The notes below the pieces were generated by a model that saw nothing but the letters and a program-made list of their open reading frames with translations, was not told where the DNA came from and made no database searches. Positions 1 to 63,824 of a stretch of DNA of 64,000 nt are shown piece after piece. Within the stretch, counting starts at the first letter, position 1. Each line of letters starts with the position of its first letter. A program made the translations under genes and the position numbers. This stretch comes from Escherichia coli (GTDB lineage: Bacteria; Pseudomonadota; Gammaproteobacteria; Enterobacterales; Enterobacteriaceae), in assembly GCF_044324875.1 (NCBI RefSeq), contig NZ_CP172185.1; one strand, given 5' to 3'.

Positions 1-984
<984 letters not shown>

Positions 985-985
985 A

Positions 986-1720
986 TCAGTCGCGCACTTT
1001 GTCCGCTTTCTCCCGGGCTTCCCGCTCGAGAGAGAAAATAATCCGCTGTAATTGCCGCTCCACCGTCGGGCTGACGTTAAGAAAACGGAAGCTCAGACGG
1101 GGAGTGGTGATGGTTTCATTCTTGCCATCAATCACTTTGCGCTCGCTGATTGAGATTAACTGGGCGTCAAAGTGAAAAACACCCCATTGCCCCATGTTGA
1201 CTTCAATCTGAGCGAAGCGCATGCCTTCGTGCAATCCGGCAGGCTTTGCTGTTTCCAGTAATGCGCCCATGCCGCCTAACGACAAATCATACAGGCGGAA
1301 ACGTAACGTACTGTTATCCGCCAGTTTGGTCTGGCAAAAATAAGGCGGATGGAGTGGGGCGGAGATGCGGAAATATCGGCGTCGTTGTACAAACCACAAG
1401 GTGGGAGGCGGTACGGTAATAAATGCCGGAAGCTGCAAGTATTCACTCTGCTGTAGTTGTTCAACAGTAAATTCGACTTTCGCGCCCTGGGTTTCGGCGG
1501 TAATGGTAATGTGCTGCGCCTTTAACACAGCGTTGTTATCTTCGGCTTGACTGCCGAAATCCAGCACCAGTTTATCCGGGGTTATTGCCAGTATTTTGCT
1601 GATCAGCTGCCCGCCATTCCAACTGATACGCAAAGGAATTGCGGCTTTGTGCAAATCGCGTAACACGCCCAGGACGGCTAACGGATTTTGTTTCAGGAAC
1701 TGCTCATGGTAATGACTCAC
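986..1720 (-). CDS. ycgR: Flagellar brake protein YcgR (c-di-GMP binding, PilZ domain)
   Basis: 244-aa ORF recognised as YcgR (MSHYHEQFLKQNPLAVLGVLRDL...); convergent with emtA with a 1-bp gap. Confidence 0.92.
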   Translation of the reverse strand: MSHYHEQFLKQNPLAVLGVLRDLHKAAIPLRISWNGGQLISKILAITPDKLVLDFGSQAEDNNAVLKAQHITITAETQGAKVEFTVEQLQQSEYLQLPAFITVPPPTLWFVQRRRYFRISAPLHPPYFCQTKLADNSTLRFRLYDLSLGGMGALLETAKPAGLHEGMRFAQIEVNMGQWGVFHFDAQLISISERKVIDGKNETITTPRLSFRFLNVSPTVERQLQRIIFSLEREAREKADKVRD

Positions 1721-1755
1721 GCGGAAAAACTCCTGACTGACAAACTGTCTTTGGT

Positions 1756-1781
1756 TTATCGGTCACAGTTAACAAAACTTA
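1756..1781 (-). promoter_or_regulatory. Sigma-28 (FliA) type promoter upstream of ycgR
   Basis: Reverse complement reads TAAGTTTT-(11 nt)-CCGATAA, close to the FliA consensus TAAAGTTT-N11-GCCGATAA, about 35-60 nt upstream of the ycgR start; fits ycgR being a late flagellar gene. Confidence 0.7.
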
Positions 1782-1920
1782 ATACAAATGCGTGAATATT
1801 TTTTACATGTTGTTCTTAAATCAGCCGACATACGCCCAGCATCGATTCCGCCCTTGCCTATACTTAGAGCGTTGACGTAAGCATTTCTTGCGTCCGATTC
1901 ATCGAAACGAGGGCCTGAAC

Positions 1921-2175
1921 ATGGGAATTATTGCCTGGATTATTTTTGGCCTGATAGCCGGCATTATCGCCAAGCTAATCATGCCGGGGCGTGATGGTGG
2001 TGGATTTTTCCTGACCTGTATTCTCGGGATAGTCGGTGCGGTGGTCGGCGGCTGGCTGGCGACCATGTTTGGCATTGGCGGCTCCATCAGCGGTTTTAAT
2101 TTGCACAGCTTCCTGGTGGCGGTAGTGGGCGCTATTCTGGTGCTGGGCGTATTCCGCCTCCTGCGAAGAGAATAA
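1921..2175 (+). CDS. ymgE: Small inner-membrane protein, transglycosylase-associated (GlsB/YeaQ/YmgE) family
   Basis: ORF 1888..2175; the ATG at 1921 is preceded by GAGGG and gives an 84-aa glycine-rich two-helix membrane protein (MGIIAWIIFGLIAGIIAKLIMPG...). Confidence 0.85.
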   Translation: MGIIAWIIFGLIAGIIAKLIMPGRDGGGFFLTCILGIVGAVVGGWLATMFGIGGSISGFNLHSFLVAVVGAILVLGVFRLLRRE

Positions 2176-2187
2176 GATTTTCATAAG

Positions 2188-2220
2188 GCGGATAGCGATA
2201 CAGATGCCGCTATCCGCTTT
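2188..2220. terminator. Hairpin between convergent ymgE and the TonB-receptor gene (possible bidirectional terminator)
   Basis: GCGGATAGC (2188-2196) pairs with GCTATCCGC (2209-2217), followed by TTT; A/T-rich on the opposite strand. Confidence 0.55.
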
Positions 2221-2224
2221 CACA

Positions 2225-4195
2225 TCAGAACGTATACTCGATACCTGCCCAGAAATTGCGACCTTCTTCAATAAACCCTTCACTGTAGGCATATTTGGTA
2301 TCAAACAGGTTATTGACCGACGCATTGACGCTGAAGCCATGACCTAAGGTGTAATCGGCTCGAATGTGGGTCACCGCAAAACCGGCGGCTTTTTGTGAAC
2401 CGTCACTGTTGCTGTAGCTGGAGGAACGCGCCTCTTCCGACAGCGTTACGCTTAACGGCTCCCACGGTTTGAGAGTCATCCATGCGGTCATTGTCTGCGT
2501 TGGCAGATCGGTTATCTTGCCGATGTCTTTGCGTTTGGCGTCAGCGTGGATCAGGGCGTAGCTCAATCCTACATCCAGTATATTGCTGATTTTCCCCTTA
2601 ATACCGGCATCCAGACCGCTGTAATCCACCGTGCCGCTGTTCTGATTTTGAATGGTATCGGCATCGATATTGTGCGAGAGGATGGCATCACTCACCCGGT
2701 TATAGTAAACGCTGACCTCAAACCCCCAGTCGTGCGTGAAGGCACCATTCCAGGTTAAATCCACCCCGCGCGCGCGTTCCGGTTTGAGCTGCGGGTTAAC
2801 AATCGCTATCTGGTTATACGCAGGTTTGGACGTGGTATAGCGTTCTTTCAGCGTCGGAAAGCGTGTGCGGTCATAGTACGAAAGCGCCAGCGTGTCTTCA
2901 TTGGCAAAGTGGTATTTCCCCATCACCTGCCAGTTAAAAGCTGACTGATTGTTGTCGTCATAATGGGTGATGCTTCCATCTTTCTCATGTTTTTTCGCTT
3001 CTACGCTATCGCGCCAGTCATAGCTGATTCCAGCCACGACATCGACATTATCGGCAGCAGCCCATTGATATTCACTGGCGAGCGACCAGGTACGATCTTC
3101 ATAGCGATCGTAAGCGGCGTGCGGCGCACCTTTTTCCCGGTGTACGTCATCTTTCCAGTTAACGGCAAACGACAACAGATCGTTTTCACGCACATCGGCT
3201 GCCAGTTGTAACCCGGCACCGTCGCTGTAATCGGAATAATGGCTGTAGCTGCCTTTTTTATTTTTCAAATCAGCCAGCGAGTTGTACATCATTAGCGTAT
3301 TTTCAAAGGTGTCGCGATACAGCCGACTTTTCAGGGTAAAACGATCGTTTAGTTGGGTCGTTCCCTGATAATAAAAACTTTCTTTGTCATACTCTGGCCA
3401 CTGCCAGTAGCGTGATTTCTGACCACTATTTCCACTGTATGGCGGGTTATCTTTTTCACCATCCTGCTTAATGTAAGTCAATGTGTATTCATCGTTTTCG
3501 CGTGGTGTAAAACCGAGCTTCACAATGCCGCGTTTATCATCAGCCGATGAATTAATCATCTTGCCGTGTTTGCCTGCAATATCATTATTTACACCATGCG
3601 GCAGGCCGAGAAAATCCTGCTTTAGCTGGCTACCGCTGACTTGCAAATACCCCAGATCGCTGCTGGCGGCAAATGAAGCATGCATATCGTAGGCATTGTC
3701 CTGGCTACGGCTCCATCCCTGGCGATATCCCAGATTTGCTTCCAGAGGTTTTGTTGGCTTCTGGGTGGTGATATTAATGGCTCCGCCCATCTGATTAGGC
3801 CCCTGAAGCAGCGACGAATACCCTTTGGAAACTTCAACTGCCCCCAAATTGTTGGTCAGAATCCGCGCCAGATCGAGGTTGCCGTCATAGGGAACATAAA
3901 TGGGCACACCGTCGAAATAGACCGGCACCTGACGACTATCAAAGCCACGAACTTTGACCTGTTCTTCGTTGCGGCTACCTGACTTTTGCAGCACCACGCC
4001 GGGGACGACACTTAATGCCTGAGCGACATTCTGTTTATCCAGGGCCTTCATGGTGGGTTGATCGAGAACGGTGGTCGTCGTCGATGATACCGGACTGGAC
4101 CATACGGTCAGCGTGTCACTCTCCTGAGCCGCTACGGCCTGCTGGGTAAAGGCAAGTGATAATGCTGTGCAGAGATAACGTTTTTTGAGTCTCAT
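2225..4195 (-). CDS. TonB-dependent outer-membrane receptor (substrate unknown)
   Basis: ORF 2225..4216; the likely start is the ATG at 4195 (the 4216 start is TTG). It has a signal peptide (MRLKKRYLCTALSLAFTQQAVAAQ), a TonB-box-like DTLTVW, a plug and long beta-barrel, and a C-terminal aromatic residue (…AGIEYTF). No counterpart at this position in K-12 as I remember it. Confidence 0.85.
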   Translation of the reverse strand: MRLKKRYLCTALSLAFTQQAVAAQESDTLTVWSSPVSSTTTTVLDQPTMKALDKQNVAQALSVVPGVVLQKSGSRNEEQVKVRGFDSRQVPVYFDGVPIYVPYDGNLDLARILTNNLGAVEVSKGYSSLLQGPNQMGGAINITTQKPTKPLEANLGYRQGWSRSQDNAYDMHASFAASSDLGYLQVSGSQLKQDFLGLPHGVNNDIAGKHGKMINSSADDKRGIVKLGFTPRENDEYTLTYIKQDGEKDNPPYSGNSGQKSRYWQWPEYDKESFYYQGTTQLNDRFTLKSRLYRDTFENTLMMYNSLADLKNKKGSYSHYSDYSDGAGLQLAADVRENDLLSFAVNWKDDVHREKGAPHAAYDRYEDRTWSLASEYQWAAADNVDVVAGISYDWRDSVEAKKHEKDGSITHYDDNNQSAFNWQVMGKYHFANEDTLALSYYDRTRFPTLKERYTTSKPAYNQIAIVNPQLKPERARGVDLTWNGAFTHDWGFEVSVYYNRVSDAILSHNIDADTIQNQNSGTVDYSGLDAGIKGKISNILDVGLSYALIHADAKRKDIGKITDLPTQTMTAWMTLKPWEPLSVTLSEEARSSSYSNSDGSQKAAGFAVTHIRADYTLGHGFSVNASVNNLFDTKYAYSEGFIEEGRNFWAGIEYTF

Positions 4196-4220: not shown

Positions 4221-5075
4221 TTAAATAGAGGCTGCGGGTTGCAGACTGACTTTAATGTCAGCTGGTGTCGCGTAATAAGGCGCGGAGGTAATAAAAAGGC
4301 GAATGCCGCAGTCGAGGTAATTTTTGAGTGTTGTCAGATTAATTCCACCGGTCAGAGCCAGCGTGCAGTGAGGAGCCAGCGACGGTGCTATTTGCGCAAT
4401 TTCAGTTGCCTGTTGCGGACTAAATTTGTCGAGCTGAAGTACGTCTGGTTGCGCGCGTAACGCGGCGATTGCCTCTTTCGGCGTGTCGGCTTCAACAACT
4501 ATTTTCTTCTCGGGTGCGTGGCGACGTAACTGATTGATTGCGCCTGACCAGTCCTGATTGTCATGAAGAAAATGACGGTGGTTGGCAAACAATAATATGG
4601 TTTCCGCACATCCGGCACGATGAATCAGTCCTCCGGCAGCCAGAATTGCCTGCGAGGCCAGTAAGCGGGTGCCCGGAATCGCTTTTCGGGTGCAGGCGAT
4701 ATTGCCATCAGGGTAACGTTCACGAAGTAACGCCAGCATTTGAGCGAGATAATCAGAAACACCGCAACTCCACTCCAGCACATTCTGGACTGCCTTCCAT
4801 CCCTGATGAAGTGCTGCGGCATTACCCTGCGCACGGATTAGCCGCTGACGCGCGTTCGCTTGTGAACCGTCGCTGACCGCGTCATCAATAGTTAATCCCA
4901 GCGTAGTTAACATCTTACACGCGACAGAAATTCCGCTGACGCAGCCGCCCTGACGGTGAAAAAACTCTATATAGCCATGCTGGTGTCCAATATTTAATGC
5001 TCGCGTGGTCAGGTCACCGCCCTGGATATCTTCCAGAAGTAACGCATCGATTTGTGCCTGAGAAAGGAAAATCAT
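4221..5075 (-). CDS. ModD-like protein (NadC / quinolinate phosphoribosyltransferase fold family)
   Basis: 284-aa ORF with blocks alignable by eye to NadC (…TRKAIPGTRLLASQAILAAGG…, …VVEADTPKEAIAALRAQPDVLQLDKF…). Family assignment is from motif recognition only, with no profile search. Confidence 0.6.
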   Translation of the reverse strand: MIFLSQAQIDALLLEDIQGGDLTTRALNIGHQHGYIEFFHRQGGCVSGISVACKMLTTLGLTIDDAVSDGSQANARQRLIRAQGNAAALHQGWKAVQNVLEWSCGVSDYLAQMLALLRERYPDGNIACTRKAIPGTRLLASQAILAAGGLIHRAGCAETILLFANHRHFLHDNQDWSGAINQLRRHAPEKKIVVEADTPKEAIAALRAQPDVLQLDKFSPQQATEIAQIAPSLAPHCTLALTGGINLTTLKNYLDCGIRLFITSAPYYATPADIKVSLQPAASI

Positions 5076-6652: not shown

Positions 6653-7629
6653 TGGCGACCTCCGCGTAACAACAAAAACAGGAAAAACGGTGCACCAACA
6701 AAAGCGGTCAGAATGCCAAGTGGGATTTCTGTTGTTCCAATGCTGCGTGCCAGCGTATCGGTAAGCAGGAGCAGAATCGCGCCAGTACACATTGCCATGG
6801 GCAACAGCTGCTGATGGTTATGACCGGTCAACAAGCGAGCAATGTGCGGAACGACCAGGCCGACCCAACCAATTATGCCCGCTATTGCTACCGTGCTGGC
6901 GGTGATTAGTGTGGCGCAGACAATTAATCCAAAGCGCAGACGTGTCACGTTCAGTCCCAGCGAACGGGCTTCGTCGTCGGAAAGCGTGAGTAAATTCATG
7001 CGCCAGCGGAGAAAAAACAGGGGCAAGGAGCCTATGAGAATGATCGGTGCAGCATAGCAGAGATCGCGTAAGGTCACGGTGGACAGCCCCCCCAGCAACC
7101 AGAAGGTAATTGACGGTAACTGGGTGTAAGGATCGGCCAGCGTTTTTATTAGCGATATCCCCGCTCCGCACAACGTTCCTAACGCAATGCCTACCAGCAC
7201 CAGGGTTAAGATCGGATCGTGGCGGGTCACCCGACGCGTAATCAACCAGACGCCCGCGACCACCATCAGCCCGCCGCAAAATGCGTACAGCTGGATGTAA
7301 ACAATGGATAATCCCCACAGGATTGCCGCGCAGGCACCAAGTCCGGCACCGGCGGAGACGCCTAAAATATCCGGTGACACTAAGGGATTACGGAACATTC
7401 CCTGATAGGTGGTTCCGGCCCCTGCCAGCGCCGCGCCCAGAAACAGCGCAGCAAGAATACGCGGCACGCGGATTTGCCAGAAGACAATTTGTTCCTGCAC
7501 AGGAACATTTTCTTGACGAAGAATGAGCGCCAGCAGTTGCTGTATATCGAGATGATAAGCCCCACTTACGGCGGCAAAAGTGATACTGATAGCTGCCAGC
7601 AGCAAAATACATCCGTTTACGGTTCTCAT
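6649..7629 (-). CDS. ABC transporter permease, FecCD/BtuC family
   Basis: 326-aa multi-helix membrane ORF typical of iron-siderophore/cobalamin-type permeases; start overlaps the binding-protein stop (ATGA). Confidence 0.85.
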   Translation of the reverse strand: MRTVNGCILLLAAISITFAAVSGAYHLDIQQLLALILRQENVPVQEQIVFWQIRVPRILAALFLGAALAGAGTTYQGMFRNPLVSPDILGVSAGAGLGACAAILWGLSIVYIQLYAFCGGLMVVAGVWLITRRVTRHDPILTLVLVGIALGTLCGAGISLIKTLADPYTQLPSITFWLLGGLSTVTLRDLCYAAPIILIGSLPLFFLRWRMNLLTLSDDEARSLGLNVTRLRFGLIVCATLITASTVAIAGIIGWVGLVVPHIARLLTGHNHQQLLPMAMCTGAILLLLTDTLARSIGTTEIPLGILTAFVGAPFFLFLLLRGGRQ

Positions 7630-8651
7630 TAGCTCGTCACCAATTTTTGATAGTCGGCGTCACTTAATGGGCAATGCCAGAACAGTTGGGCGTAATGCTG
7701 CATGTCACTTTTAAACTGGCGATTGATGGCGGGATCCAGCCAGGCGTGAAGTCTGCGTAATCCCAGAAGACGGTTGATTCCCGGCGGGGCATCCAGCCAG
7801 CCAAAGGGCAGGCCACTTAAAAATAAGATGCGTTGTTCCGCAACCGCTTTCACGCCCTGCCAGAGAGGATCACGACGAATAAAATCTGCAGTAACGGCCT
7901 CCTGAACCAGAATAATATCCGGCTGCCAGCGCAGGAGATTTTCCATGGAAACCTGTGTCAGACCGTGGCGATCGGCTATTTGCGCGACGTTATGCAAACC
8001 TAATAATTCCGCCGCCTCGGTATGCAACGAACCCTGTAAGCCCGTTTCCAGCCCTCGAGGACCGCGCGCAGCATAAAAGCTGAGGTTAGCGGCGGGTGAG
8101 GTGGCGAATGCCTGAGCTTCACCAACGAAGCGGCTGGCGAGATTGGCTTGTTCTGCGGCGCGGTGCTCTTCGCCTAACGTTTTGCCAAGCGTTGTTAACT
8201 GTTCTGCTGATTGTTCCAGTTTCCCGTTAAGCAATAACCAGGGTATTTGTGTCTGTTCGCTAACCTGCCGTGCCTGGGAGATCCAGGTTTCATCCGTATT
8301 GCCGCAATCAACGACCAAATCGGGATGTAACGCCATAAGCCCTTCCAGCGAGAGTGTGCTGGCGCGCCCGGCGAGTCGTCCCAGCCTGGGTAACTGGCGA
8401 ATGTGCTCTGGCAATGGAATTAATGCCTGACGGGCAAAATCAAAAGAGGAAAAACCGACCATTTTTTCTGGCGCGACAGCCAGCAATAGCAAATCGGCGG
8501 GCGCACCTGCGCTGACGATGCGTGTAATGTTTTGGGCTTCGGGAAGCGTCAGTGAGGCCCAGAATTTGACTGATTGTGCAAAAGAAGGCAGATGATGCAG
8601 GAACAACGTCGACGCAAGAATCTGTGTAAACCTCCGTCTGGTTAGTGACAT
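7629..8651 (-). CDS. Periplasmic substrate-binding protein of the ABC importer, with a twin-arginine-like signal
   Basis: 340-aa ORF; N-terminus MSLTRRRFTQILASTLFLHHLPSFAQS has T-R-R-x-F, a hydrophobic core and an AxA-like site; first gene of a six-gene minus-strand operon. Confidence 0.75.
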   Translation of the reverse strand: MSLTRRRFTQILASTLFLHHLPSFAQSVKFWASLTLPEAQNITRIVSAGAPADLLLLAVAPEKMVGFSSFDFARQALIPLPEHIRQLPRLGRLAGRASTLSLEGLMALHPDLVVDCGNTDETWISQARQVSEQTQIPWLLLNGKLEQSAEQLTTLGKTLGEEHRAAEQANLASRFVGEAQAFATSPAANLSFYAARGPRGLETGLQGSLHTEAAELLGLHNVAQIADRHGLTQVSMENLLRWQPDIILVQEAVTADFIRRDPLWQGVKAVAEQRILFLSGLPFGWLDAPPGINRLLGLRRLHAWLDPAINRQFKSDMQHYAQLFWHCPLSDADYQKLVTS

Positions 8652-16287: not shown

Positions 16288-16386
16288 AAGACAGAAACGA
16301 TTTCTGATACATCAGAGTGATCTGTATTTCATTCCGGCGCACGCTAACAATTTTCAGCATCGTTTAAGGGCTTGTCTATCCCGCAC

Positions 16387-19254
16387 TTAAAAGCTGAATC
16401 GATATCCTCCGTTGACTTGCTTCTGATCAAAGAGGTTACCCTGCGTGTAATCCGCTTCGAGATAGAATGTGTGCTGTTTGTTATACTGTGCACTGACTCC
16501 CACGCCGTTATTCCAGCCATTACCTTTGAAACTGTACTTCTCCCGGGAGTTGTTCAACAGATATTCGGTATCCCCTGAAAACTCGCGGATAGCGCCAGTC
16601 TTCACATAGACATTCAGCTGGCTGTTGCCTGCGGTGATGTCATATCCCAGTATCATGCTGGCACGCCCCAGCAGCGATTCGTAGTGATTCAGATGTATAT
16701 TGAGGCCATTACTCGCCTTCATAGCCATCTCATTCTGGTGGCTGTATGTGAGCTGGGTTTGCGGCTCTATATAGAACCCATAACCAGTAGGGGTCAGGTT
16801 GAACCTCTGCCCGGCTTCCAGGGCGATACTCATTCCATTCGCAGTGCCGTTGGCATTAACGCCGTTGTTCTGACTGTCCAGTACGTGGAAACTATTTTTC
16901 TGGCGTGATGCTTTTACAACGAGATCGCTGTAAAAACCGCTGTGTGCCATGTAACTGGCGTACATTCCCATGTAGTCTGAACGTGCGGTACCGTCGCCTC
17001 CGCTATAGTCCGGCGATGCATGTGTTGAGCCAATATACAGACCGACATACAACGGCATTTCATCAGAGAGACGTTTATCCCCACCAAACTGGATACCGCT
17101 GTAACCCATGTCAAAGCCGCTCAGTTTGCCACTGGCAAAGGAGTCCAGGCTTCCCCCATAACTGCGCAACCAGATATTACCGTCTTTACTCTGATTTCGC
17201 AGGTCACCCATCCGTTGCATCAGCGTACGGTTTTCAACATAGTTCAATAAGTAACCGACATTGAGATAATTGCCGCCAGCATCTGCAGTCGTGGTGGGTT
17301 TAGGCGTGGGAGCGGGGGCAGGCGTAGGATCGGGGTTGACTATGGGAGGCTGAGCGGGAGCTGGTGTGGGTTCAGGATTAGGAGTCGGTTCCGGAACTGT
17401 CCCGGAAGCGTAAAGCTCCCAGTTAGTGCCATTTTTACGCACATCGTACAGATATCCCCCCAACTCAACCTGAGAAGACGCGCTGAACGAGGCCGCACCG
17501 TCAGTGGTTTTTACCACTGTCAGAACTTCATTTCCCGTTGTGGCCTCGCTGCCCTGGTTGCGGATAGCCAATACGTGATTACCAGCACTACTCCCGCTGA
17601 TATTCAATAAATCCCCTTTATTATTAACGCCATTACCCTCGCCAACAACATCAGCACGCATAATAAAGGTACTGTTACCGCTCAGGTTCTCTACGTTTAA
17701 TGTGGTAAATGTGCCGGCAGTTGACCCGTGGCTGGCAAAATCGACAGTTGAATGGCTCAGCGCCAGCGTGTCGAGATTAGAATTACTTGTTACGTTCCAG
17801 ACGCTGTTATTCATTGCAACGTCCAGTTTCCCGCCATTGACATTATCGCTGAGGGAAGAACCTGTCCAAACCGACCCAGGGTGCATATCCAGATTGATTA
17901 GCCCACCTTTGGAAAGAACGCTACCGTTGATAAGCATACGACCCGAGGCGTTGATGCGGCTGGCGGCATAACCATCGTCATGTTGCGTTGCGATGGCCAT
18001 CTGGTCGGGTGTACTCATATCAATGACCAGATCGCTCGTGAGGTCGATCTGGCTGTTGGTCATGGCATAAATTCCCCTGGCTCCTGCCGCGCCGGTGATA
18101 GCCAAACTGTCTCCGGTTATTCTACCGCCGCTGAGCGCCCACAAACCCAGCGCCAGACTGCCATTACGATCAACCGTAATATCGGTATTTTGCATGTTGA
18201 CAACAGCCGTTGCCGTCTGGGCTGAGGCACCATAAGAACCGCTGGAAAAGATGCTGTTTCGTTGCGCTGCCGTGCCAGAAAAATTGATTGTCGCGTCTGA
18301 ACCACTGGTTACGAGGCCACCGCCCTGCGCGGAAGAAATATGGCTATCAGCACCGATAGTGGTTGTACCACCACGAACTTCGACGCCATTTGCCGCGGCT
18401 CCAGTTACATCAACAGTGAGTGCATTCGCGCTCACCTGGCCAAAGCTCCAGAGGCCGTGTGCATTATCGCCATTGGTTTTAATGGTACTGTTTGTTCCGA
18501 GATCGACAACAGAGTTTTTCTGTACGTTTATCCCCATGGCGCTGTAGCCCTGAACATCGATTGTCAGGTCTGTCGCCGTAAAACGCGCAGCACCATTGGC
18601 GTTATTGCCGTTGAGACCACCGATATAAACACCTGTACTTCCATCGGTCTTGATTTTACTTCCGCTTCCAAGATCGACACTGGTGCCATAGTCATTGATT
18701 GTTAGGCCTATACCGTTCGAGTTTTCAATGGTGAATTGAGTGGCTGTTAGTGTTGAGCTATGTCTAATAATGATGCCGTCATCGTTACTCTTAATGGTGC
18801 TGCCTGTGCCTAAGTCAGCATGGGTATAGTCACCAATTAAATTAATGCCGATGGCAGAGGTTTGACCAACAACATCTACTGTAAGTCGGTTAGCTGTCAG
18901 GGAGCTGTTCTTGCCCTGAATAATGATTCCCTTTGCATATCCAGAGGCGTCGTTGACATTGACGGTGACATCATTACCCAGGTTGATATTGCCAGGCGTG
19001 TTTCCTGCTGGGGTCATTACACCATAGAGGTTTCCTGATGGATCGGCGGTATCTCCTGTAATTCTGTCACCATCATTAATAGTAATATTGGTGCCATTTT
19101 GACTTCCTAAATCAGCAGCTATCAGCAGGGGGGAAAAGATAATTGCATTCAAACCAATAGCGCCATATTTTATCAGTTGAATGGAGGGCGAACGGATTTT
19201 TAATTCAGCGAGACGATCGGCTTTGGTATTCCCATTGTGTTGTTTGATGCCCAT
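16387..19254 (-). CDS. ycgV: Autotransporter (type Va) adhesin-like protein
   Basis: 955-aa ORF with a signal region, a long Gly/Thr/Asn-rich beta-helical passenger, a Pro/Thr-rich linker (PEPTPNPEPTPAPAQPPIVNPDPTPAPAPTPKPTTT) and a C-terminal beta-barrel ending …GGYRFSF. Confidence 0.88.
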   Translation of the reverse strand: MGIKQHNGNTKADRLAELKIRSPSIQLIKYGAIGLNAIIFSPLLIAADLGSQNGTNITINDGDRITGDTADPSGNLYGVMTPAGNTPGNINLGNDVTVNVNDASGYAKGIIIQGKNSSLTANRLTVDVVGQTSAIGINLIGDYTHADLGTGSTIKSNDDGIIIRHSSTLTATQFTIENSNGIGLTINDYGTSVDLGSGSKIKTDGSTGVYIGGLNGNNANGAARFTATDLTIDVQGYSAMGINVQKNSVVDLGTNSTIKTNGDNAHGLWSFGQVSANALTVDVTGAAANGVEVRGGTTTIGADSHISSAQGGGLVTSGSDATINFSGTAAQRNSIFSSGSYGASAQTATAVVNMQNTDITVDRNGSLALGLWALSGGRITGDSLAITGAAGARGIYAMTNSQIDLTSDLVIDMSTPDQMAIATQHDDGYAASRINASGRMLINGSVLSKGGLINLDMHPGSVWTGSSLSDNVNGGKLDVAMNNSVWNVTSNSNLDTLALSHSTVDFASHGSTAGTFTTLNVENLSGNSTFIMRADVVGEGNGVNNKGDLLNISGSSAGNHVLAIRNQGSEATTGNEVLTVVKTTDGAASFSASSQVELGGYLYDVRKNGTNWELYASGTVPEPTPNPEPTPAPAQPPIVNPDPTPAPAPTPKPTTTADAGGNYLNVGYLLNYVENRTLMQRMGDLRNQSKDGNIWLRSYGGSLDSFASGKLSGFDMGYSGIQFGGDKRLSDEMPLYVGLYIGSTHASPDYSGGDGTARSDYMGMYASYMAHSGFYSDLVVKASRQKNSFHVLDSQNNGVNANGTANGMSIALEAGQRFNLTPTGYGFYIEPQTQLTYSHQNEMAMKASNGLNIHLNHYESLLGRASMILGYDITAGNSQLNVYVKTGAIREFSGDTEYLLNNSREKYSFKGNGWNNGVGVSAQYNKQHTFYLEADYTQGNLFDQKQVNGGYRFSF

Positions 19255-19547
19255 ACCACTCCTATATAGTACCCAGGCTATGGGTCTATGGATTTTGTCA
19301 TTTTGTTTAAGTCAATGAATAATATCCTCTTATCATCATGATATTTGTATGGTGCTATCATGATGAGCTGCTCTGAGAATAATTCTCTATTACCGGGCAA
19401 AATCAGGAACACAGGAATTAATATATATTTAACATCCCCCTTACAAAGGTGAGTTTAGATCGAGTTATTCCCTAAGTTGTCGTTACTTATTCCAATTCGT
19501 TACAATGAATATGACAAAAACATTACAACAAACAGCGGTTAAATAAT

Positions 19548-19802
19548 TTGGTGAATATTTTTGGTAATAATCCTAATTGGTTATGGGATTTTCGCTTGAT
19601 GTATCTGCATAACAAAAACAATATGAGCCATTTTTGCATTACTAATAAGAAAAAGCAAAAAACATCGATATTCATTTTTGATCAATGGATTTTCTGGCAT
19701 ATCGTTATTATCGTGATACTGGTTATCATTTTCATCTTGCCAGGATCGCACGTAATCACGTTATTCGGGGATTTTATCTGCGGGATATTACCCTTCAGGT
19801 AA
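19548..19802 (+). CDS. Hypothetical small hydrophobic protein (84 aa) in the AT-rich ycgV-ychF intergenic region
   Basis: ORF-track entry only; the product has a long hydrophobic stretch (IFWHIVIIVILVIIFILPG). No obvious RBS and a very AT-rich context, so it may not be expressed. Confidence 0.2.
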   Translation: MVNIFGNNPNWLWDFRLMYLHNKNNMSHFCITNKKKQKTSIFIFDQWIFWHIVIIVILVIIFILPGSHVITLFGDFICGILPFR

Positions 19803-20014
19803 GTCCTTTTCTCGCCAGCATATTGGAGCGTGATCAATATTGATCAGCTGTAAAAAGGTGTCTGATGTGCAGTGGAACACAAACTTACGTTATCTCATTG
19901 CTAATGAGATATCCCTCATCTGAACACTTATGTCTTTAATTATTCTCGTGGTTCACTATAGGCAATAAGCACAAAAGTGTAGGATGTTATAAGAATGGTT
20001 AGGACTCGGTGAAA

Positions 20015-20045
20015 TGAAAAATCCACGCAATTGCGTGGATTTTAT
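20015..20045 (-). terminator. Intrinsic terminator downstream of ychF
   Basis: Perfect hairpin ATCCACGC-AATT-GCGTGGAT (20021-20040) flanked by an A-run and a T-run; lies ~55 nt past the ychF stop. Confidence 0.75.
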
Positions 20046-20099
20046 ATACTTTTGCGCTCTTCATGAGATTTAGCGAAACCTCTTGAGACAACAAATTAA

Positions 20100-21191
20100 T
20101 TAGACGTTGAACAGGAAGTTCATTACATCGCCATCTTTAACGATGTAATCTTTGCCTTCTGCACGCATTTTGCCTGCTTCTTTCGCGCCTTGTTCACCTT
20201 TGTAAGTGATGAAATCTTCAAACGAGATGGTTTGTGCACGGATAAAGCCTTTTTCAAAATCAGTATGGATTTTGCCAGCGGCCTGCGGCGCGGTTGCACC
20301 AACCGGAATGGTCCATGCACGTACTTCTTTCACCCCAGCGGTGAAGTAAGTTTGCAGGTTCAGCAGCTTATAACCGGCACGGATCACACGGTTCAGGCCC
20401 GGCTCTTCCAGCCCAAGCTCCTGCATAAACTCGTCACGTTCTTCGTCGTCCAGTTCGGCAATGTCTGCTTCAACAGCAGCACAAACCGGAACCACAACAG
20501 AACCTTCTTTCGCCGCGATTTCACGCACCTGGTCAAGATACGGGTTGTTTTCAAAACCGTCTTCGTTGACGTTGGCGATGTACATTGTTGGTTTCAGCGT
20601 CAGGAAGCTCAGGTAACGAATAGCCGCTTTCTCTTCAGCGCTTAAATCCAGCGCGCGCAGCATACCTGCGTTTTCCAGCTGCGGCAGGCATTTTTCCAGT
20701 ACCGCCAGCTCGGCTTTCGCGTCTTTATCGCCACCTTTGGCTTTCTTCTGTACGCGATGAATCGCACGTTCGCAGGTGTCGAGGTCTGCCAGCGCCAGTT
20801 CGGTGTTGATAACTTCAATATCATCCGCCGGGTTAACTTTGCCGGAAACGTGAATGATGTTGTCATTTTCAAAGCAGCGAACAACGTGACCGATCGCTTC
20901 AGTTTCACGGATGTTGGTCAGGAACTGGTTACCCAGACCTTCGCCTTTCGATGCGCCTTTTACCAGACCGGCGATATCGACAAATTCCATGGTCGTGGGA
21001 AGCGTACGCTGCGGTTTTACGATTTCAGCCAGTTGATCCAGGCGAGGGTCAGGCATTGGTACGACGCCTGTGTTCGGCTCGATGGTACAGAATGGAAAGT
21101 TGGCCGCTTCAATACCGGCTTTGGTCAGCGCGTTGAACAGGGTAGATTTCCCGACGTTGGGCAAACCGACGATACCGCATTTGAATCCCAT
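20100..21191 (-). CDS. ychF: Ribosome-binding ATPase YchF (Obg-family GTPase fold)
   Basis: 363-aa [26 protein letters not shown]… with the G1 motif and TGS domain. Confidence 0.95.
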
Positions 21192-54940: not shown

Positions 54941-55354
54941 TTATTGCTTGATCAGGAAATCGTCGAGGGATTTACCTTGCTCATCCATTGCTTTTTTGAT
55001 TACAGCTGGAGTACGGCCCTGGCCAGTCCAGGTTTTAGTTTCGCCGTTTTCGTCAACGTAGCTATATTTTGCCGGACGCTGAGCACGTTTAGCTTTGGTG
55101 CCAGATTTAACGGCAGCAAGGCTATTCAGCAGTTCGTTCGGGTCAATACCGTCAGCGATCAGCATTTCGCGATATTGCTGCAGTTTACGAGTGCGCTCTT
55201 CAACTTCAGCAGCAGCCGCGCTTTCTTCTTCGCGACGTTCGTTAACAACAACTTCTAATTTTTCCAGCATTTCTTCCAGCGTTTCAAGTGTACATTCTCT
55301 TGCCTGCGCACGAAGAGTACGGATGTTGTTCAGAATTTTAAGTGCTTCGCTCAT
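54941..55354 (-). CDS. hns: Nucleoid-associated protein H-NS
   Basis: 137-aa [47 protein letters not shown]…. Confidence 0.97.
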
Positions 55355-55957
55355 TGTAGTAATCTCAAACTTATATTGGGGTGGTTTGTTGAGGTAATAA
55401 TAGAGCCTTAAATTCAGTTGTGCAATAGCCAGGAATGTAAGGAATTCAAAATTGTTCTTTATTTTGTGCCGCCAATAAATATCTTTTCATAAAATTAGCC
55501 AGAAAAGACGCGGCATATAGCCCTATTTGCGCCGATGATTTCGCAGCACGTGAGGTTAAAACTTCCTGATTCATGTCACATTTTATGGGGAGATTATCGT
55601 AGGCTGACGACCTTTCAGTCTTCTGTATTAGTCGTGTTTACGAGAATTCCCTATTAAGCGAATGATGAAAAGTAGAACAGTCGCAATAAGAGCAGGGACT
55701 TAGTATTGCACTATCTCCAGGAGGTCAACAGAGGGCTATTACTTGCGCAACAGGTTAAAGATTGTGAATAGTTACCAGCAGTCATTTACCCGCTTATAAC
55801 AAGCGAGGCAGTTGTAATGATAGCTCAGAAGGATTATGCAAGGCTTCGTAAGGGAGAACGCATATACCACTTCTGTGCATACTGTTGAGCTGAAAAACTG
55901 ACGAATTATGATAAACTCCAGCCAACTTTAATTCATATCATTGAGGGCCTGTGGCTG

Positions 55958-60331: not shown

Positions 60332-60807
60332 AATGCTCTCCTGATAATGTTAAACTTTTTTAGTAAATCATCTGCTCGAATACGAGAGTATAGTCAGTGC
60401 GGTGATGATTTGCTTAACCGATGAAAATCAAAAGCTTACTCGCGCTCACACTCACTGTGATTTACTAAAAGAGTTTAAACATTAGAGTTATTATCTCTAA
60501 TGCGTCACTTCCAGGTGGCGTAAGCAAGATTACTCACTTCTGGGTACTGATTACGTGATCCAAATCAAATTTTTGCAAAGCTGACACCTTTCAGCATCGC
60601 TTTTCGCCATTATAGCTAACAGTTAATAAATTGTAGTATGATTTGTTGGCTACATTATCATGTTTTGCACAACCAGATAACAATAACGAATGATAGCAAT
60701 TTTAAGTAGTTAGGAGGTGAAAAATGCTGTCAAAAGGCGTATTGTCAGCGCGTCTTTTTAACCTTATTTATGGCTAACATTATCCGGCTTTTGCTTCGGA
60801 GCTAACC

Positions 60808-61455
60808 GTGATTCAGACCCTTTTTGATTTTCCCGTTTACTTCAAATTTTTCATCGGGTTATTTGCGCTGGTCAACCCGGTAGGGATTATTCCCGTCTTT
60901 ATCAGCATGACCAGTTATCAGACAGCGGCAGCGCGAAACAAAACTAACCTTACAGCCAACCTGTCTGTGGCCATTATCTTGTGGATCTCGCTTTTTCTCG
61001 GCGACACGATTCTGCAACTTTTTGGTATATCAATTGATTCGTTCCGTATCGCCGGGGGCATCCTGGTGGTGACGATAGCGATGTCGATGATCAGCGGCAA
61101 GCTTGGCGAGGATAAACAGAACAAGCAAGAAAAATCAGAAACCGCGGTACGTGAAAGCATTGGTGTGGTGCCACTGGCGTTGCCGTTGATGGCGGGGCCA
61201 GGGGCGATCAGTTCTACCATCGTCTGGGGTACGCGTTATCACAGCATTAGCTATCTGTTTGGTTTCTTTGTGGCTATTGCATTGTTCGCTTTATGTTGCT
61301 GGGGATTGTTCCGCATGGCACCGTGGCTGGTACGGGTTTTACGCCAAACCGGCATCAACGTGATCACGCGTATTATGGGGCTATTGCTGATGGCATTGGG
61401 GATTGAATTTATCGTTACTGGTATTAAGGGGATTTTCCCCGGCTTGCTTAATTAA
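60808..61455 (+). CDS. ychE: MarC-family inner-membrane protein YchE
   Basis: 215-aa six-helix membrane ORF; divergent from adhE. Confidence 0.9.
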   Translation: MIQTLFDFPVYFKFFIGLFALVNPVGIIPVFISMTSYQTAAARNKTNLTANLSVAIILWISLFLGDTILQLFGISIDSFRIAGGILVVTIAMSMISGKLGEDKQNKQEKSETAVRESIGVVPLALPLMAGPGAISSTIVWGTRYHSISYLFGFFVAIALFALCCWGLFRMAPWLVRVLRQTGINVITRIMGLLLMALGIEFIVTGIKGIFPGLLN

Positions 61456-61467
61456 TTCCTTTCAAAT

Positions 61468-61495
61468 GAAACGGAGCTGTCATGCTCCGTTTACT
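61468..61495 (+). terminator. Candidate intrinsic terminator after ychE
   Basis: AAACGGAGC-TGTCAT-GCTCCGTTT followed by a T-rich stretch. Confidence 0.6.
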
Positions 61496-62192
61496 TCGTC
61501 ATTATTTTTACTTTGTTCCGGTGCAGTTATCAAAAGCAAAGGGAATGGGTAAAAATATTCTTCTTGAATTACAGTTGGTTATAAGGATTTCCTTAACTGC
61601 TTCTCCTCACCATCATGTTATTTTCGCCACATCATAATCCTGGGCTTGCTGAAGAATAATTGAAATGATATTAGTTATTCCACTGCCTTTGGTAGAGGAA
61701 AGTGCTAAATAATAATCAATTGTTAAATTATTGTGCATTTCACTACTGGAACTGTAATCAGAAAAGATAGACATGCTTAACCAATCTCTATTTGATTGAA
61801 TTGAAAGATGTTTGTTAAGACATGGATGCAAGCTATAGATTCTGATACGGTCAATAAAAGAGAATTGCTTAACAATTTTGCAAAATGTATTGGCGAGTAA
61901 GAAGCGCATTTGGTACTTTCCGGGCAACCGCCAGACGATTCTTTATTGGTAATGAGAATAATTAACAATTAAAGAGCGTCGCGAAAGAATAATGTGTCTC
62001 GACAGGGGAGACACAGTACGAATCGACATAAGGTGATCGTCTGAATCACCAGAATAAATAAAGTCGGTGATAGTAATACGTAACGATAAAGTAACCTGAC
62101 AGCAGAAAGTCTCCGAGCCTGTGCAGGGTCCCAATCCGGGATTACACATGCTGGTTAATACCAGTAATTATAATGAGGGAGTCCAAAAAACA

Positions 62193-63824
62193 ATGACCAA
62201 CATCACCAAGAGAAGTTTAGTAGCAGCTGGCGTTCTGGCTGCGCTAATGGCAGGGAATGTCGCGCTGGCAGCTGATGTACCCGCAGGCGTCACACTGGCG
62301 GAAAAACAAACGCTGGTACGTAACAATGGTTCAGAAGTTCAGTCATTAGATCCGCACAAAATTGAAGGTGTTCCGGAGTCTAATATCAGCCGAGACCTGT
62401 TTGAAGGCTTACTGGTCAGCGATCTTGACGGCCATCCGGCACCTGGCGTCGCTGAATCCTGGGATAATAAAGACGCGAAAGTCTGGACCTTCCATTTGCG
62501 TAAAGATGCGAAATGGTCTGATGGCACGCCAGTCACAGCCCAAGACTTTGTGTATAGCTGGCAACGTTCTGTTGATCCGAACACCGCTTCTCCGTATGCC
62601 AGTTATCTGCAATATGGGCATATCGCCGGTATTGATGAAATTCTTGAAGGGAAAAAACCGATTACCGATCTCGGCGTGAAAGCTATTGATGATCACACAT
62701 TAGAAGTCACCTTAAGTGAACCTGTTCCGTACTTCTATAAATTACTTGTTCACCCATCAACTTCACCGGTGCCAAAAGCCGCTATCGAGAAATTCGGAGA
62801 AAAATGGACCCAGCCTGGTAATATCGTCACCAACGGTGCCTATACCTTAAAAGATTGGGTCGTAAACGAACGAATCGTTCTTGAACGCAGCCCGACCTAC
62901 TGGAACAACGCGAAAACCGTTATTAACCAGGTAACCTATTTGCCTATTGCTTCTGAAGTTACCGATGTCAATCGCTACCGTAGTGGTGAAATCGACATGA
63001 CTTATAACAACATGCCGATCGAATTGTTCCAGAAGCTGAAAAAAGAGATCCCGGACGAAGTTCACGTTGATCCATACCTGTGCACTTATTATTACGAAAT
63101 TAACAACCAGAAACCGCCATTTAACGATGTACGTGTGCGTACCGCACTGAAACTGGGTATGGACCGCGATATCATTGTTAATAAAGTGAAAGCGCAGGGC
63201 GACATGCCCGCCTATGGTTACACTCCACCGTATACTGATGGCGCAAAATTGACTCAGCCGGAATGGTTTGGCTGGAGCCAGGAAAAACGTAACGAAGAAG
63301 CGAAAAAACTGCTGGCTGAAGCGGGTTATACCGCAGACAAACCGTTAACCATCAACCTGTTGTATAACACCTCCGATCTGCATAAAAAGCTGGCGATTGC
63401 TGCCTCTTCATTGTGGAAGAAAAACATTGGTGTAAACGTCAAACTGGTTAACCAGGAGTGGAAAACATTCCTCGACACCCGTCACCAGGGCACTTTTGAT
63501 GTGGCCCGTGCAGGCTGGTGTGCAGACTACAACGAACCAACTTCCTTCCTGAACACCATGCTGTCGAACAGCTCGATGAATACCGCGCATTATAAGAGCC
63601 CGGCCTTTGACAGCATTATGGCGGAAACGCTGAAAGCGACTGACGAGGCGCAGCGCACAGCTCTGTACACTAAAGCAGAACAACAGCTGGATAAGGATTC
63701 GGCCATTGTTCCTGTTTATTACTACGTGAATGCGCGTCTGGTGAAACCGTGGGTTGGTGGCTATACCGGCAAAGATCCGCTGGATAATACCTACACCCGG
63801 AATATGTACATTGTGAAGCACTAA
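62193..63824 (+). CDS. oppA: Periplasmic oligopeptide-binding protein
   Basis: ORF 62121..63824; the start at MTNITKRSLVAAGVLAALMAGNVALA gives the 543-aa protein. Confidence 0.95.
   Translation: MTNITKRSLVAAGVLAALMAGNVALAADVPAGVTLAEKQTLVRNNGSEVQSLDPHKIEGVPESNISRDLFEGLLVSDLDGHPAPGVAESWDNKDAKVWTFHLRKDAKWSDGTPVTAQDFVYSWQRSVDPNTASPYASYLQYGHIAGIDEILEGKKPITDLGVKAIDDHTLEVTLSEPVPYFYKLLVHPSTSPVPKAAIEKFGEKWTQPGNIVTNGAYTLKDWVVNERIVLERSPTYWNNAKTVINQVTYLPIASEVTDVNRYRSGEIDMTYNNMPIELFQKLKKEIPDEVHVDPYLCTYYYEINNQKPPFNDVRVRTALKLGMDRDIIVNKVKAQGDMPAYGYTPPYTDGAKLTQPEWFGWSQEKRNEEAKKLLAEAGYTADKPLTINLLYNTSDLHKKLAIAASSLWKKNIGVNVKLVNQEWKTFLDTRHQGTFDVARAGWCADYNEPTSFLNTMLSNSSMNTAHYKSPAFDSIMAETLKATDEAQRTALYTKAEQQLDKDSAIVPVYYYVNARLVKPWVGGYTGKDPLDNTYTRNMYIVKH

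Follow-up and report, generated by a model that had tools for sequence, protein, structure and literature searches.

The locus examined here is the gap between ycgV and ychF in a 64,000-nucleotide stretch of Escherichia coli DNA, the whole of which is referred to as the window. According to the list of open reading frames (ORFs), this gap extends from the start of ycgV to the stop of ychF, and its 845 bp, at positions 19255-20099, are free of genes. It had been described in the first-pass annotation as an unusually long, AT-rich non-coding stretch, and comparison with the surrounding DNA bore this out. With a GC content of 0.35 the spacer ranked first, as the lowest, among 1264 overlapping 845-bp segments, the value of the whole 64-kb window being 0.503; along its length GC ranged from 0.28 to 0.40, compared to about 0.5 in the flanks. 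The closest complete genome over the spacer is that of an E. coli O169:H41 strain (99.8% identity), and by the annotation of this genome the spacer is the longest of about 45 intergenic intervals, the next longest being about 400 bp. No gene or feature was annotated within it in the E. coli genome annotations inspected, among them the curated K-12 record NC_000913.3. Next in AT-richness within the window comes a stretch at about 61200-62300 (GC about 0.38), which covers the 5' end of oppA and its upstream spacer; the annotation has a 98-aa hypothetical protein in that spacer, and a high density of promoter-like sites lies near the stretch at about 60400-60900.

The spacer is composed of three parts, namely the ychF terminator, about 750 bp of AT-rich DNA linked to ycgV, and a promoter-proximal block next to the ycgV start codon (Table 1). 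Tandem repeats were not found in it, and the direct and inverted repeats that it contains are short, most of them no more than chance would give. In a 13-sequence alignment, 75 of the 845 sites were variable and nucleotide diversity (pi) ranged from 0.019 to 0.057, which is comparable with the variability at third codon positions of ychF (24/200) and ycgV (16/200). The sequence of the spacer is thus evolving almost neutrally.

Table 1. Features of the ycgV-ychF spacer and its flanking genes, in window coordinates.
Feature	Position	Strand	Description	Basis
ycgV	16387..19254	-	955-aa AIDA-type autotransporter adhesin gene, served by the spacer	ORF list; annotated in the 99.8%-identical genome and in K-12
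Promoter-proximal block	19255..19380	-	Equivalent of the 126-bp YbdO probe	Mapping of the PMC11681634 primers (19255-19274 and 19361-19380)
ycgV Shine-Dalgarno sequence AGGAG	19259..19263	-	4 nt before the ATG	Sequence; anti-SD duplex -6.9 kcal/mol
Inverted repeat TCATCATGATA / TATCATGATGA	19333..19366		11 nt, perfect, arms 12 nt apart; contains two ATCATGAT palindromes	Repeat search
Equivalent of K-12 promoter island 1255333_301	19412..19712 (about)		Lowest-GC core, 0.28-0.34	PMC3661553 Table 1
84-aa hydrophobic ORF, TTG start	19548..19802	+	ATG-started 67-aa core at 19599-19802	
75-bp segment absent in K-12-type strains	19739..19813		Deletion bordered by GCCAG microhomology (CTTGCCAG/CTCGCCAG)	Alignments
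Perfect 16-bp palindrome TGATCAATATTGATCA	19831..19846		Contains two Dam (GATC) sites, 10 bp apart; lies about 580 bp from the ycgV ATG	
ychF 3' UTR	20011..20099	-	Common to the ST131 strain and a record labelled Salmonella; ycgV-linked DNA begins to its left	
ychF intrinsic terminator hairpin	20018..20043	-	AAAATCCACGC-AATT-GCGTGGATTTT, 11-bp stem	
ychF	20100..21191	-	Redox-regulated ATPase, upstream housekeeping gene; its transcript ends in the spacer	ORF list and annotations

Two hairpins are predicted in the 3' UTR of ychF (dG -28.8 kcal/mol, z -4.9). One of them begins 57 nt past the ychF stop codon and is followed on the minus strand by a U-run (UUUUUCAUUUC). The ychF terminator which the first-pass annotation had placed in the gap is indeed there. 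The structure, a GC-cored hairpin followed by a U-run, is that of canonical intrinsic (Rho-independent) terminators and has nothing unusual about it; as in many of these, its A-run and T-run flanks make it formally bidirectional, giving the hairpin a terminator-like look on both strands. The hairpin was unchanged across the 13 strains save for one site at 20042. The lowest variability of the spacer was found in the 3' UTR with this terminator, at 3 of 89 sites, and the segment 19921-20099 was the least variable part with 8 of 179 sites.

The rest of the spacer has a different distribution. At least 80% of the spacer is carried by 4087 of 5426 complete E. coli genomes at 90-99.8% identity, and the ST131 strain 4224 (NZ_CP103592.1) lacks ycgV together with about 750 bp of the spacer, keeping only 20011-20097 (query 757-843) at 86-87.5% identity. 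In this strain the slot between dhaR and ychF, equivalent to 16288-20010 of the window, is occupied in place of ycgV by an island of about 27.5 kb at record positions 1491-29205. The island has a tyrosine integrase adjoining ychF, a retron Ec67-type reverse transcriptase and an ABC-three-component system, and its two ends carry imperfect direct repeats of the form AAAATGAGTAC(N5-6)ATGAGTACAA; it resembles a defence island that occupies a variable slot. IS remnants, DUF2339 and DUF3999 genes, RadC, DUF2787 and a second integrase are also present in it. Except for the ychF 3' UTR, the spacer and the ST131 island have no sequence in common. A search of the literature did not yield an integration hotspot at ychF in E. 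coli, the ychF site of the pipolin paper being that of other phyla. In strain HH45, the dhaR-ychF spacer measures 539 bp (record positions 7535-8073) and holds fragments of ycgV, 58 bp of the ycgV-proximal leader and the ychF 3' UTR; it is a scar left by deletion of the ycgV module. The HH45 spacer also contains the remnant of a small His/Pro-rich lipoprotein-like ORF, which lies next to dhaR in ST131.

When one genome per species was scanned, the only orthologues of ycgV to emerge were those of a Citrobacter MAG (81%) and of Leminorella grimontii (60%), which both lie in other contexts. Each of these genes has its own AT-rich leader of about 500-600 bp, at 4473-5000 of the Citrobacter record and at about 4420-5000 of the Leminorella one. 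The Citrobacter leader aligns with the window only over about 57 bp before the start codon, to about 19311, and with the Leminorella leader there is no alignment. Because these AT-rich leaders are unrelated, a long AT-rich leader appears to be a recurrent property of ycgV rather than a conserved sequence. Taken together, the comparisons with ST131 and with the orthologues indicate that 19255-20010 forms an accessory module together with ycgV, and that 20011-20099 goes with ychF. Two further observations concern the records themselves: strain 95-3192 has a ycgV annotated as a pseudogene with a frameshift, and E. coli-like contigs with ycgV and ychF occur in an 'Actinomycetes' MAG and in a Nocardioides assembly, two records that appear to be contaminated.

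In K-12, the equivalent spacer is entry 1255333_301 (ycgV/ychF) among the 78 "promoter islands" listed for this strain by Panyukov and Ozoline (PMC3661553). It is assigned there to class 'A', for binding by H-NS in every ChIP study considered, and its neighbouring gene is predicted to be foreign (PMC3661553 Table 1). Binding of the RpoH holoenzyme to the K-12 ycgV/ychF spacer was reported by genomic SELEX (PMC5493296). The orthologous K-12 spacer is 92-95% identical to that of the window. Placing the island at about 19412-19712 assumes an offset of 777 bp between U00096.2 and U00096.3 and the absence of indels between K-12 and the window in this region. Promoter islands, described by Shavkunov, Panyukov and Ozoline and exemplified by the appY island, are stretches of at least 300 bp in which predicted transcription start points are extremely dense. 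The K-12 ycgV/ychF island is AT-rich, dense in -10-like hexamers, bound by H-NS and adjoined by a gene predicted to be foreign, with little productive transcription. Linkage to a horizontally acquired gene, one of the criteria for such islands, was also found for the window spacer, in that ycgV and about 750 bp are missing in the ST131 strain, ycgV orthologues lie elsewhere in different contexts, and GC is 0.35 compared to 0.50. The window spacer differs from the K-12 island in being another allele with 77 extra bp, the H-NS occupancy being known for the K-12 allele, and in that composition alone explains its enrichment in promoter-like sequence. Promoter-like hexamer pairs occurred in it at 3.3 times and -10-like hexamers at 4.2 times the density of the window, and promoter-like sites were no more frequent than in composition-matched shuffles (3 found, 4.0 expected), indicating that the 'island' signal in the window allele is largely a matter of AT-richness. 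In a crude promoter scan the spacer was not the densest bin of the window. Six weak minus-strand candidates for a ycgV promoter were found in the spacer, and a plus-strand promoter-like site lies at 19477-19506. The high-affinity 10-mer of H-NS, TCGATAAATT, was uninformative, since with up to two mismatches it gave 69 matches in the window compared to 64 expected and one weak match in the spacer. The gene of the silencer invoked here, hns, is located in the same window at about 55061-55474 on the minus strand, between tdk and galU.

The promoter-proximal block has been studied with respect to a specific regulator. The LysR-type regulator YbdO represses ycgV and shifted a 126-bp probe of the ycgV promoter in EMSA (2024 study, PMC11681634), with the protein at micromolar concentration (PMC11681634). 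The inverted repeat within the region of this probe is a candidate operator. Reported sigma-54 and GalR 'ycgV' sites were considered as elements of the spacer and rejected, as both of them lie inside the ycgV gene. In the K-12-like clinical strain 1506, an IS1, 777 bp long with its target duplication, has inserted after window position 19288, 34 bp upstream of the ycgV start codon, and parts ycgV from its whole leader. ycgV has been described as cryptic in K-12, and its product as an adhesin that promotes adhesion and biofilm formation once overexpressed (PMC3796261, PMC10653831). In these respects ycgV resembles the H-NS-silenced cryptic adhesin loci of E. coli, which include chaperone-usher fimbriae and the autotransporters yfaL, ypjA and ycgV itself and which are silent under laboratory conditions and active from a foreign promoter (PMC3796261, PMC10653831). 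What these loci also share with ycgV is a patchily distributed surface adhesin gene behind a long AT-rich leader. To our knowledge, ycgV differs from the other silenced adhesin loci in that no counter-silencer or inducing condition has been described for it and only repression by YbdO has been reported.

Five GATC sites (19458, 19680, 19744, 19832 and 19842) are scattered over the 845 bp, a number that is not significantly above expectation. The last two belong to the 16-bp palindrome, for which we estimate a probability of about 0.03 of occurring by chance in the spacer; its centre varies between strains and the K-12 centre base differs. The palindrome is a possible protein or SeqA/Dam site. 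ycgV is among the differentially methylated biofilm genes (PMC10653831), and GATC sites upstream of an AIDA-type autotransporter gene are a likeness to the Dam/OxyR phase-variation switch of agn43 (flu). Unlike that of agn43, the leader of ycgV does not have three clustered GATC sites within an OxyR-like site close to its promoter, its own sites being scattered. Beside the palindrome, the 75-bp segment missing from K-12-type strains is followed at 19855-19900 by a hypervariable patch with small indels (14 variable sites in 50 bp).

The first-pass annotation had also pointed to a hydrophobic ORF of 84 aa without a convincing ribosome-binding site. The ORF exists as described, with one predicted transmembrane helix, and no Shine-Dalgarno sequence was found before any of its candidate starts: the anti-SD duplexes are weak, with -2.4 kcal/mol at TTG19548 and -4.0 at ATG19599, where the background of the gap averages -2.0 and the duplex of ycgV has -6.9. 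Its hydrophobicity is as expected of T-rich DNA. To follow the ORF between strains, the window was aligned with 12 relatives (11 complete E. coli genomes and one E. coli-like MAG contig), giving 13 sequences. In 11 of the 13 strains, a TAG near 19578 interrupts the TTG-started form. The frame from ATG19599 ends at three different C-termini, giving 67 aa, 84 aa where TAA is changed to CAA, or 59 aa in the K-12 type, in which the 75-bp microhomology deletion takes out the stop codon and the last 21 codons. Frameshifted and truncated versions are found among database predictions as well. Conservation at the protein level, which the first-pass annotation had proposed to examine, was not found. Synonymous and non-synonymous variants of the ORF numbered 4:11 (2:9 in the shared part), as expected under neutrality (19.8% synonymous, p=0.52), and its diversity (pi 0.032) is not below that of the surrounding spacer and is 2.5 times that of the flanking genes. 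By codon position, the variable sites of the ORF were distributed as 7, 2 and 1 in 19599-19738 and as 9, 3 and 4 overall, compared to 1, 1 and 24 in ychF. The periodicity of 7, 2 and 1 (p=0.045, uncorrected) suggested a minus-strand ORF of 56 aa at 19581..19751, which was rejected as a small-number effect; this frame has stops in some strains, 6:8 synonymous to non-synonymous variants and no start in K-12. Among 2000 dinucleotide-preserving shuffles, 10.9% contained an ORF of at least 84 codons, and 23% contained one of at least 67 codons that starts with ATG. No relatives were found outside the E. coli/Shigella locus among 5.8 billion clusters or in an exhaustive HMMER search of 1.84 billion representatives. 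The ORF itself has no Pfam match, PF00768 (on P0085) belonging to a match that shares only the C-terminal third of the ORF. We therefore judge 19548..19802 to be a chance ORF and not a gene, and the spacer contains no ORF under selection.

Several alternative readings of the spacer were weighed against these data. If the frame from ATG19599 encoded a real, young membrane protein of 59-84 aa, specific to E. coli/Shigella, transcribed divergently from ycgV and ended at the bidirectional hairpin, it would account for a frame that is open in all 13 sampled strains, for predictions by gene callers in many assemblies, with the name 'membrane protein' in a few sources, and for the plus-strand promoter-like site and the terminator-like hairpin on either side of it. 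An open frame is nevertheless expected about half of the time under neutrality (P 0.52 for no new stop given 17 changes), the length of the frame is within chance, the substitutions follow the neutral expectation with variable sites mostly at codon position 1, and the unstable C-termini, the frameshifted and truncated variants, the lack of a Shine-Dalgarno sequence and the lack of homologues beyond the locus all argue against such a protein. It is also absent from the NC_000913.3 annotation and from the ribosome-profiling sORF supplement of bioRxiv 10.1101/2021.07.02.450978, which has no entry at the K-12 coordinates and none for ycgV or ychF either. A small membrane protein is largely refuted at the level of selection and is highly improbable. 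Equally little credit can be given to the frame being a de novo proto-gene in AT-rich silenced DNA, which would be translated only when H-NS silencing lifts and on which purifying selection would not yet be detectable. A small regulatory RNA, suggested by the first-pass annotation, could be either a transcript of the plus strand that stops at the bidirectional hairpin or an sRNA derived from the ychF 3' UTR. The low variability of 19921-20099, the terminator-like appearance of the hairpin on the plus strand and an extended -10-like sequence, TGTTATAAG, about 25 nt upstream of the hairpin are consistent with it. Against it, no Rfam 15 family reached its gathering score in the spacer, the annotations of K-12 and of the other E. 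coli records inspected show no ncRNA there, and the stem is without variation by which covariation could be judged. The only Rfam matches with E<0.01 were two of Leu_leader, at 31 bits compared to a gathering score of 50, which lie on both strands over the palindromic terminator; being sub-threshold and symmetric, they were rejected as artefacts. A literature search for a ychF-linked sRNA in RIL-seq data yielded nothing relevant, and nothing speaks for a plus-strand mini-transcript ending at the hairpin. The suggestion of a small RNA was thus not upheld, and we regard it as very unlikely.

The AT-rich DNA could also be what remains of a decayed mobile element, or of a former companion gene of ycgV, and have no function today. 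Insertion and deletion have demonstrably taken place in the dhaR-ychF slot, the spacer evolves almost neutrally, 75 bp of it have been lost in K-12 and one strain carries an IS1 within it, all of which would fit with decay. Yet the AT-rich DNA resembles neither the ST131 island nor any protein family, and a distant-mode search of plasmid and phage records gave no similarity either, the plasmid matches being mislabelled chromosomes. Terminal repeats and att-like sites are likewise missing within the spacer, and it is kept near full length in the 4087 genomes. Of the horizontally acquired remnant that the first-pass annotation had put forward, the acquisition is supported, given that ycgV and about 750 bp are missing in ST131, and the notion of a remnant is not, as there is no plasmid, phage or protein match. 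Such an origin, which does not exclude a silencing role, has a small chance of being correct.

We consider it quite likely that the spacer is non-coding and consists of the ychF 3' UTR with its terminator and an AT-rich upstream region that silences ycgV. In this model, the pth-ychF transcript would end at the strong hairpin terminator in the right-hand 89 bp (20011-20099), and the terminator would shield ycgV from read-through out of ychF. The AT-rich 700-750 bp, crowded with -10-like hexamers, would recruit H-NS and non-productive RNA polymerase and keep ycgV cryptic, and the promoter-proximal 130 bp or so may carry sites for specific regulators such as YbdO. The idea of a silenced promoter for the ycgV adhesin, raised in the first-pass annotation, is supported by the listing of the K-12 spacer as an H-NS-bound promoter island (PMC3661553) and by the match of the promoter-proximal 126 bp to the YbdO probe (PMC11681634). 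H-NS occupancy, promoter-island status, YbdO binding and the cryptic state of ycgV, as reported in the literature for K-12 and APEC, probably hold in the window strain as well, and we infer that silencing is the function of the AT-rich spacer.

With its K-12 equivalent catalogued as an H-NS-bound promoter island and the ychF terminator at its right-hand end, the spacer is a real but ordinary finding; its importance is small beyond tidy annotation. For that annotation, the 'membrane protein' label given to the ORF by some automated pipelines should not be carried forward, the ORF being neutral, unstable and an orphan. For E. coli, the spacer offers a textbook-style case of an acquired adhesin gene that would stand behind AT-rich, H-NS-bound DNA, with a terminator insulating it from a housekeeping operon.
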